Below, in pieces: positions 23,622 through 23,931 of a stretch of 33,231 nucleotides of DNA; the stretch's first letter is position 1; each line of letters opens with the position of its first letter. The notes below the pieces were generated by a model. It was not told the DNA's origin, did no database searches, and saw nothing but the letters and a program-made list of their open reading frames with translations. The stretch lies in the IMG/VR virus record IMGVR_UViG_2874956758_000003. One strand, 5' to 3'. The DNA is from a virus. Its lineage: Duplodnaviria > Heunggongvirae > Uroviricota > Caudoviricetes. The position numbers and the translations under genes were made by a program.

Positions 23622-23696
23622 TGGAGCGGGCAGCGGGAATCGAACCCGCATCATCAGCTTGGAAGGCTGAGGTAATAGCCATTATACGATGCCCGC
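23622..23696 (-). tRNA. tRNA-Gly (anticodon UCC)
   Basis: 75 nt, GCGGGCATCGTATAATGG...CCTTCCAAG...GGTTCGATTCCCGCTGCCCGCTCCA; cloverleaf with anticodon loop CTTCCAA; encoded CCA end. Confidence 0.75.
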
Positions 23697-23699
23697 ATA

Positions 23700-23774
23700 T
23701 GGTGCCGACTACCGGAATCGAACTGGTGACCTACTGATTACAAGTCAGTTGCTCTGCCTGCTGAGCTAAGTCGG
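23700..23774 (-). tRNA. tRNA-Thr (anticodon UGU)
   Basis: 75 nt, GCCGACTTAGCTCA...ACTGACTTGTAATCAGT...GGTTCGATTCCGGTAGTCGGCACCA; anticodon loop CTTGTAA. Confidence 0.75.
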
Positions 23775-23776
23775 CG

Positions 23777-23853
23777 CTGGCCCACCACCGAGGACTCGAA
23801 CCTCGCACCGTCAACTTAGAAGGTTGATGCTCTATCCGGATGAGCTAGTGGTG
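23777..23853 (-). tRNA. tRNA-Arg (anticodon UCU)
   Basis: 77 nt; anticodon stem-loop TCAAC-CTTCTAA-GTTGA, T-arm CGAGGTTCGAGTCCTCG, acceptor stem CCACCAC/GTGGTGG, encoded CCA. The 5' C is unusual, so ends are approximate. Confidence 0.6.
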
Positions 23854-23854
23854 G

Positions 23855-23931
23855 TTGGTGGCCCTTGCTGGACTTGAACCAGCGACCTGGCGATTATGAG
23901 TCGCTCGCTCTGACCAACTGAGCTAAAGGGC
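23855..23931 (-). tRNA. tRNA-Ile2 (anticodon CAU, ileX-like; formally could be Met)
   Basis: 77 nt GGCCCTTTAGCTCAGTTGGTCAGAGCGAGCGACTCATAATCGCCAGGTCGCTGGTTCAAGTCCAGCAAGGGCCACCA; resembles E. coli ileX (from memory), anticodon loop CTCATAA. Confidence 0.7.

Follow-up and report, generated by a model that had tools for sequence, protein, structure and literature searches.

Shiga toxin (Stx)-converting phages of the 933W type carry a tRNA cassette, ileZ-argN-argO, after the antiterminator gene Q and its terminator and before the late and lysis genes, as in Stx2a_F349 (AP012530.1). These tRNAs were reportedly described in the late 1990s. Three tRNAs adjoining stx2a have been discussed together with the codon-compensation view of phage tRNAs, cited after Bailly-Bechet et al. 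2007 (PMC7946995). Here, a related array was analyzed in the IMG/VR record IMGVR_UViG_2874956758_000003 (Caudoviricetes), a stretch of 33,231 nt, hereafter called the window. The array comprises four tRNA genes in the order Ile-Arg-Thr-Gly and is probably a functional cassette of a lambdoid prophage, supplementing minor decoders for phage and acquired genes and transcribed both from a promoter of its own and by Q-dependent read-through.

In kind, the array is ordinary: late-region lambdoid tRNA cassettes have long been known, and the exact array is already part of the RefSeq annotation, in which the Prokaryotic Genome Annotation Pipeline (PGAP) places Ile-Arg-Thr-Gly at this position in E. coli genomes. 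The S. flexneri genome papers, too, may already mention these tRNA genes. What is added to an earlier first-pass annotation of the window is a conserved promoter, a multi-copy distribution in Shigella and enteroinvasive E. coli (EIEC), and the existence of this public annotation.

ARAGORN, run on the whole window, detects four tRNA genes and no others; all of them lie on the minus strand, between 23622 and 23932. The Rfam model RF00005 recognizes the same four with 56.4-70.5 bits, against a gathering score of 29 (E values of 1e-9 to 1e-13). In the direction of transcription, they are tRNA-Ile2 (anticodon CAU, reading AUA; 23856..23932), tRNA-Arg (UCU, reading AGA/AGG; 23778..23854), tRNA-Thr (UGU, reading ACA; 23700..23775) and tRNA-Gly (UCC, reading GGA/GGG; 23622..23696), separated by spacers of 1, 2 and 3 nt. 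CCA is encoded by each gene. The acceptor and T stems pair in all of them, the lone exception being one T-stem mismatch in the Thr gene, which is the same as in host thrU. The array is hereby confirmed as four real, canonical tRNA genes with encoded CCA. The first-pass annotation had read, by eye, four tightly packed genes with spacers of 1-3 nt and the anticodons CAU, UCU, UGU and UCC; both programs recover the genes, and ARAGORN folds all four as tRNAs on the minus strand with these same anticodons. Only the extent given there, 23622-23931, has to be corrected: its start stands, and the 5' end of the Ile gene lies one base further, at 23932.

The first gene is labeled 'Met' by ARAGORN. Its identity is highest with the Stx-phage ileZ (74/77) and with the K-12 genes ileY (71/77) and ileX (69/77), versus 54/77 with the elongator genes metT/metU and 48/77 with the initiator gene metZ. 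Its acceptor stem, GGCCCTT/AAGGGCC, provides C4-G69 and C5-G68, the acceptor pairs needed by the E. coli lysidine synthetase TilS (PMC11947777, PMC1635315). The anticodon loop is that of host ileY, and an A27xC43 opposition stands at the site where the host gene has G27.U43. In E. coli genomes, the identical gene is labeled tRNA-Ile by PGAP. A tRNA-Met identity is made unlikely by the grouping with ileY and ileZ, the TilS pairs and the PGAP label. These three lines agree with the Ile-CAU assignment of the first-pass annotation, and the evidence points to a predicted Ile2 (lysidine-type) tRNA, which is, judging from the identity between them, the counterpart of ileZ.

The Arg gene, in the second slot, is of phage descent. 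It shares 64/77 positions with argN and 65-66/77 with phage genes annotated as tRNA-Lys, versus 58/77 with host argU and 46/77 with argO; a derivation from host argU or from argO is ruled out by these last two values. Compared in this way, slot 2 belongs to the phage argN lineage, and the unusual C1-G72 acceptor end is common to both. Within the lineage, the anticodon is UCU in the window, UCG in the Stx phages and UUU in PhiR47_1 and PPompW-type phages. U33 is near-universal in tRNAs; the UUU form of slot 2, annotated as tRNA-Lys, has C33 and a T-stem mismatch, A51xC63. Of these forms, that of the window is the cleanest, with every stem paired, the anticodon loop CUUCUAA of host argU, and A20 and G73 in place. 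Together with C35, we take these two to be Arg identity elements. Relatives of the array in other E. coli have compensatory changes in the stems, A3-U70 to G3-C70 in the Arg gene and C6-G67 to U6-A67 in the Gly gene.

The last two genes, as their sequences indicate, are host-derived copies of thrU and glyT. The Gly gene is identical to glyT (75/75), and the Thr gene differs from thrU at two of 76 positions, both in the D loop (U16C and U20C). None of tyrU, thrT and tufB is found near the array, so that the earlier impression of phage-borne genes resembling thrU and glyT, but outside their usual context, is borne out. As weak evidence on the route, the Thr-Gly spacer TAT is the remainder expected from a single 206-nt deletion of tyrU and its spacers in the thrU-tyrU-glyT operon. 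Positions 16 and 20 are dihydrouridine sites in E. coli tRNAs, and both are lost in the Thr gene. Owing to these two changes, its D arm equals that of the Stx-phage argO except for one extra base, which may be due to chance or to gene conversion over a short tract.

The codons read by the four tRNAs were counted in 38 K-12 core genes, in 30 genes of a related, not identical, prophage (locus L001 of EIEC FDAARGOS_944) and in 34 genes from the entry region of the plasmid pCP301. The frequencies per 1000 codons, in the order core, prophage and plasmid entry region, are 3.0, 10.6 and 33.9 for AUA; 1.2, 6.3 and 17.8 for AGA; 5.9, 12.2 and 21.7 for ACA; and 7.2, 11.5 and 14.9 for GGA. The G+C content at third codon positions is nearly the same in core (0.56) and prophage genes (0.53); the enrichment in prophage genes therefore concerns particular codons and does not stem from AT richness in general. 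Ranked by the prophage/core ratio, the four cognate codons stand at 2, 3, 5 and 11 of 61 (rank-sum P = 2.3e-4, with codons taken as independent). Among the 14 A-ending codons, they occupy ranks 1, 2, 3 and 5 (P = 0.002), and rank 4 is CGA, the codon of argN in the sister cassette. The anticodons of the cassette family (UCU, CAU, UGU, UCG and UCC) match the five most prophage-enriched A-ending codons, a clean illustration of codon compensation. The fit to the virulence-plasmid genes is weaker (P = 0.012), the four codons being enriched 2- to 15-fold in the entry region over the core genes.

The four codons had been called rare in enterobacterial genes and common in acquired ones. The first half of this statement applies to AUA and AGA, ACA and GGA being low-use only; the second half holds for all four, which are enriched in prophage genes, in trkG and in the leucine-rich repeat (LRR) half of ipaH, and most of all in the plasmid entry region. 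Counted against the core genes, trkG of the window contains 34.7 AUA, 8.2 AGA, 20.4 ACA and 26.5 GGA per 1000 codons, and enrichment is also seen in the LRR half of ipaH, which is richer in AUA and ACA than the NEL half.

A putative sigma-70 promoter, recognized by its conservation, lies immediately before the Ile gene on the minus strand (23942..23970). It consists of TTGCAG (23965-23970), a 17-nt spacer and TATTAT (23942-23947), followed by the G+C-rich discriminator TCTGCCTCC at 23933-23941; a consensus scan reports the neighboring register TTTGCA-18-TATTAT. TTGCA(G/A), the 17-nt spacing, GTTATTAT and the G+C-rich 9 nt are invariant in the window-type, PhiR47, Stx2a and PPompW arrays, four lineages in which the spacer sequence and the DNA further upstream cannot be aligned. 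Because the promoter-like element is invariant across these four diverged lineages, the array is probably transcribable on its own. The distance from the end of the -10 element to the mature 5' end is 9 nt, versus 10 nt at the host ileX promoter. We infer that the array has its own promoter, resembling the stringently controlled ones, besides read-through from the late operon. With such a conserved promoter, the cassette could act in lysogens and in defective prophages. A terminator-like hairpin detected by the consensus scan only, ~260 nt downstream of the Gly gene (23345..23364, minus strand), is a possible end of the stand-alone tRNA transcript.

Upstream of the promoter, on the same strand, lie the elements expected to govern late transcription. 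A Q-like late antiterminator gene of 555 nt (24122..24676) matches Pfam DUF1133 (3.8e-107) and passes Phage_antitermQ (28.4 bits, cutoff 26); phmmer also links it weakly to 6p18 and 6jnx, structures of the phage-21 Q protein (E ~1e-3), and the same 555-nt gene is annotated by PGAP in L001. It is followed by a tR'-like intrinsic terminator (24021..24050, minus strand), identified by direct reading and folding as the hairpin GAGCCCGC-UUUAU-GCGGGU followed by seven U. The hairpin is present in both the minimum-free-energy and the centroid folds of 23933-24130 (z-score -3.7), and it is not among the sites listed by the consensus scan. In Shigella paralogs located behind different Q genes, a hairpin with another loop is kept at the terminator position. 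PR' was not located, so that Q-dependent read-through is proposed on the precedent of lambda and the Stx phages. TTGACG, overlapping the Q stop codon, was considered as a PR' -35 element and rejected, no matching -10 being present at 16-18 nt.

A separate observation is that the stretch 24022-24106 gives below-threshold Rfam matches to isrK, a Salmonella Hfq-binding small RNA (24022-24095; 20 bits, E = 0.1), and to the Trp leader. A short transcript of the 6S-like kind between PR' and tR' would be in keeping with these matches, and no promoter could be placed there.

If these elements work as proposed, the array would have a basal level of transcription, probably under growth-rate control, from its own promoter, TTGCAG-17-TATTAT with its G+C-rich discriminator, and would be transcribed strongly after induction, when Q-modified polymerase would pass the terminator. 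RNase P would cut at each 5' end, and exonucleases would trim the trailers of 1-3 nt. TilS would convert C34 of the CAU tRNA to lysidine, conferring Ile identity and AUA reading, and MnmE/G would act on U34 in tRNA-Arg and tRNA-Gly. Additional gene copies would raise the decoder supply where the host encodes only one or two genes (argU, thrU, glyT, ileX/ileY), which may speed up the translation of late genes rich in AUA, AGA/AGG, ACA and GGA and of cargo genes, trkG and ipaH among them. With its 2-5 copies in Shigella and EIEC, the array probably also aids the translation of AT-rich virulence-plasmid genes.

Exactly 10 of 5,426 complete E. coli genomes contain ipaH (EIEC), and the same 10 hold the window-type array with a 100%-identical slot-2 gene, in 2-5 copies each; the exact slot-2 allele is present, among the 5,426, only in those 10. 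Three arrays each are found in S. flexneri SFBU1023 and in 'E. coli' ECMA0423. This confinement of a multi-copy allele to ipaH-positive EIEC and Shigella raises the question of whether prophage tRNA dosage supports virulence-plasmid translation. The genes of the Shigella virulence plasmid are enriched in AGA, AGG, GGA and AUA, their translation depends on the MnmE/G modification of tRNA-Arg(UCU) and tRNA-Gly(UCC), and AGA/GGA decoding limits the output of virulence-plasmid proteins, prophage tRNA genes being unmentioned in that work (PMC12283395). Shigella and EIEC may then retain the cassette chiefly as a constitutive translational helper that serves the AT-rich virulence plasmid, with its type III secretion genes and ipaH, and not the phage, an idea to which the copies left intact within prophage remnants riddled with insertion sequences (IS) and the codon enrichment of the entry region would also contribute. 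We hold it to be possible, on the doubtful side, as several observations run counter to it. In the EIEC genomes, the array and ipaH share one prophage, 27-32 kb apart (20 kb in the window); the association can therefore be explained in large part by linkage, together with shared phage pools, and linkage to ipaH prophages would suffice to account for the distribution. Moreover, the codon fit is better for the prophage than for the plasmid genes, and the Leu, Ser and Asn codons most over-used by the plasmid have no matching tRNA in the array.

The array is also found outside this group. A single slot-2 copy with 96-97% identity is present in six ipaH-negative E. coli genomes. Of the two examined, strain 504838 possesses a complete Ile-Arg-Thr-Gly array set in another phage backbone, a further argument against a virulence-plasmid helper, and strain 720632 has Ile-Arg-Lys-Gly, the third gene being a thrU scaffold with the anticodon UUU (L029 2575-2650), annotated as tRNA-Lys; the anticodon has thus been switched in a slot other than the second. 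Within the ipaH-positive group, the fourth array gene of E. coli RMDEC332 is called tRNA-Val by PGAP instead of Gly. In one array each of SFBU1023 (L014 4173-4246) and ECMA0423 (L020 6256-6329), a 1-nt deletion removes a base from the 3' strand of the Thr acceptor stem. This Thr copy, a 74-nt ARAGORN call, may be impaired, and its occurrence in a Shigella paralog likewise speaks against a helper kept for the host.

A more far-reaching version would make the exact Arg-UCU/Ile2/Thr-UGU/Gly-UCC cassette a pathovar-specific, amplified translational helper, fixed in 2-5 copies in every Shigella/EIEC genome examined, with its own stringent-type promoter active even in dead prophages and with slots 2 and 3 as anticodon-switching hot spots (UCU, UCG, UUU). 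We consider it unlikely, marginally more so than the simpler form. If true, the dosage of the AGA/AGG, GGA and AUA decoders, those found limiting by the 2025 study, would be quadrupled, and prophage tRNA dosage would be an unrecognized layer of Shigella virulence-gene control.

Comparison of the paralogs isolates the array as a unit. The window array and the three of SFBU1023 are 99.4-100% identical, versus 66-72% in most comparisons over the 400 nt upstream. The homology starts at the terminator hairpin, and in one SFBU1023 copy, it ends right after the Gly gene, followed by an unrelated downstream flank. Such sharp borders would be expected if the conserved 300-400 bp block were a passenger with no selected decoding role, serving as a site of exchange between the Q and lysis modules. 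The occurrence of the same cassette behind unrelated genes (a DUF1133 Q, a different Q, a DNA methyltransferase) and before different holins points the same way, as does the degeneration of slot 2 in many of the viral contigs listed below. The idea nevertheless seems improbable, since it leaves aside the compensatory stem changes in the Arg and Gly genes, the perfect cloverleaf stems of the window allele, promoter elements that are invariant amid diverged upstream DNA, and the non-random match of the anticodons to phage-enriched codons; besides, a linker role would be compatible with a decoding role.

The interpretation as a functional decoding cassette has its own weak points. The function is predicted from the sequence. 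The prophage is decayed (IS elements, a split lysis cassette), so that a benefit for the phage is gone in this copy, and the near-identity of the paralogs may reflect recent spread or gene conversion rather than selection. Since ACA and GGA are not truly rare, additional Thr and Gly genes may bring little gain; the codon counts come from sampled gene sets (38, 30 and 34 genes), compared by rank tests that treat codons as independent. The promoter is supported by its conservation pattern, the consensus scan having found 3 promoter-like sites in the region versus 2.7 expected in shuffled sequence, and no convincing PR' was found between the Q stop codon and the hairpin.

The window array has many relatives among phages. 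A scan of IMG/VR viral contigs with the 3' end of the Ile2 gene returned at least 120 contigs, in which Ile-Arg(UCG)-Arg(UCU) arrays account for at least 56, Ile-Arg(UCU) for at least 25, Ile-Lys(UUU)-Thr-Gly for at least 10 and the window type, Ile-Arg(UCU)-Thr-Gly, for at least 5. The window array thus appears, by composition, as a minority variant of a well-populated family. Matches to unrelated metagenome-assembled genomes were rejected as arrays, being single ordinary host tRNAs (Arg-UCU and one Thr-UGU) that share the anticodon arm. Among the listed viral contigs (at least 120), the slot-2 anticodon arm is hypervariable, and many slot-2 genes are degenerate: their loop has 6 nt or their anticodon arm is replaced, and ARAGORN misses them.

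Such variability in an anticodon arm is also what could be expected of tRNAs that replace, or escape the cleavage of, host tRNAs cut by anticodon nucleases (PARIS AriB, PrrC/RloC, colicin D, VapC-type toxins). Both tRNA-Thr(UGU) and tRNA-Lys(UUU) rank among the prime targets of PARIS AriB, from which phage T5 escapes by means of variant tRNAs (PMC12409363, PMC11464382). Slot 2 of the sister arrays carries UUU on an Arg-type scaffold, with C33 and a stem U36-A-A-G-U-U that differs from the AriB site at 39-41, and the Thr scaffold of strain 720632, as described above, has likewise acquired UUU. For the array of the window, however, an anti-defense role is very unlikely. Its Thr gene keeps the exact AriB site U36-A-A-U-C|A41 (PMC12409363), the differences from thrU being in the D loop only; its Gly gene equals host glyT; in the anticodon loop, its Ile gene does not differ from host ileY, nor its Arg gene from host argU; and a Lys tRNA is absent from the window. 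Evasion of defense by the window alleles was accordingly rejected on the intact site in Thr and the host-identical Gly gene. As these tRNAs contain no escape substitution, only a dosage effect could therefore apply.

The window as a whole is an IS-riddled lambdoid prophage remnant. On the minus strand, from high coordinates downward, hok/sok, DUF1367, YbcO and the DUF1133 Q precede the array, which is followed by the holin, the lysozyme and the Rz region, the last of these interrupted by an IS3-family element; beyond Rz lie trkG, the small and large terminase subunits, the portal gene, more IS elements and a tail-fiber gene. The first lysis gene encodes a class II (P21-type) holin (22729..22944, minus strand; Pfam Phage_holin_2_1, 1.5e-35), and the next one an RrrD-like phage lysozyme (22232..22729, minus strand; Pfam Phage_lysozyme, 9.5e-46), whose homologue in L001 is named 'lysozyme RrrD' by PGAP. 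The array had been placed on the late-transcript strand between a tR'-like terminator following Q and the holin gene. The order and strand are correct, and the adjacency to the holin is loose, with ~680 nt and no recognizable gene between it and the Gly gene. An open reading frame (ORF) of 130 aa in this gap (23185-23577) has no match in Pfam or NCBIfam, and a permissive Rfam scan of the gap gave only sub-threshold chance matches, mostly to miRNA models. An unannotated stretch of ~350 nt immediately before the holin (22975-23323) has matches of ~85% identity in 1,428 of the 5,426 E. coli genomes, including 639 plasmid sites within a lambdoid lysis-region remnant adjoining iss; some chromosomal copies are annotated with a 63-aa hypothetical ORF. 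The 680-nt gap is not counted as part of the cassette, and its holin-proximal 350 nt are common lambdoid sequence.

The lysis cassette has been disrupted: at 22058, inside Rz, the sequence ceases to resemble that of the EIEC prophage, the ORFs of the IS3-family element follow (20769-21179 and 21137-22042), and a second Rz-like ORF (20435-20857) lies beyond, adjoining trkG. A prophage with such a split lysis cassette cannot be lysis-proficient; its tRNA genes are nonetheless intact. The ipaH effector gene is on the plus strand at 1576-3312, and the Shigella small RNA CssrB (Rfam, 144.6 bits) is encoded on the minus strand at 1286-1468, ~100 nt upstream of it. In the early-right region, a hok/sok-type module (26129-26453; Rfam sok/CssrC, 111.7 bits) is followed by a helix-turn-helix gene (26700-27095) and a gene for an ImmA/IrrE-type peptidase (27244-27627). 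No more than 35% of the window is covered by any E. coli genome, and what it shares with the EIEC prophage L001 is limited to 22058-25579 and the hok/sok region. L001, an intact prophage that shares the tRNA cassette, also carries, just upstream of hokD, a gene for the tRNA-modifying epoxyqueuosine reductase QueH (8815-9480), which has no counterpart in the window.

Set beside the K-12 host genes, the array agrees fully in Gly (75/75), almost so in Thr (74/76) and less in Ile2 (71/77 with ileY, with the same anticodon loop and TilS determinants); it differs in lacking tyrU, thrT and tufB and in an Arg gene that does not come from argU (58/77). With the anti-PARIS tRNA sets of the T5/T4 type, it has in common a phage-borne tRNA-Thr(UGU), and its sister arrays a tRNA-Lys(UUU). 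Unlike those sets, the window tRNAs are unsubstituted at the known cleavage site (PMC12409363), and they form a group of four in a temperate lambdoid setting instead of a large set in a lytic phage.

The Ile-Lys(UUU)-Thr-Gly arrays of phages PhiR47_1, vB_EcoS-689R5 and vB_EcoM-606R7 and of prophages in enterotoxigenic E. coli have the same four slots and spacers and are ~93% identical to the window over 328 nt, with Thr and Gly genes identical to thrU and glyT. The difference lies in slot 2, which has UUU, C33 and A51xC63 in those phages and a CUUCUAA loop with a perfect T stem in the window.

In the Stx cassette, finally, the first gene is orthologous (74/77) and the second homologous (64/77, both with C1-G72), the upstream TTGCA-17-TATTAT is kept, and a 1-nt spacer separates genes 1 and 2. 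The first-pass annotation had located the array where Stx-type phages carry ileZ-argN-argO, which is true by position and by homology too. In contrast to the Stx phages, slot 2 of the window reads AGA (UCU) where argN reads CGA (UCG), argO is replaced by the host-derived Thr-UGU and Gly-UCC genes, no stx or toxin genes follow, and the Q gene belongs to another family (DUF1133). By sequence comparison, the array is best regarded as a compositional variant and not as the Stx-type cassette itself.

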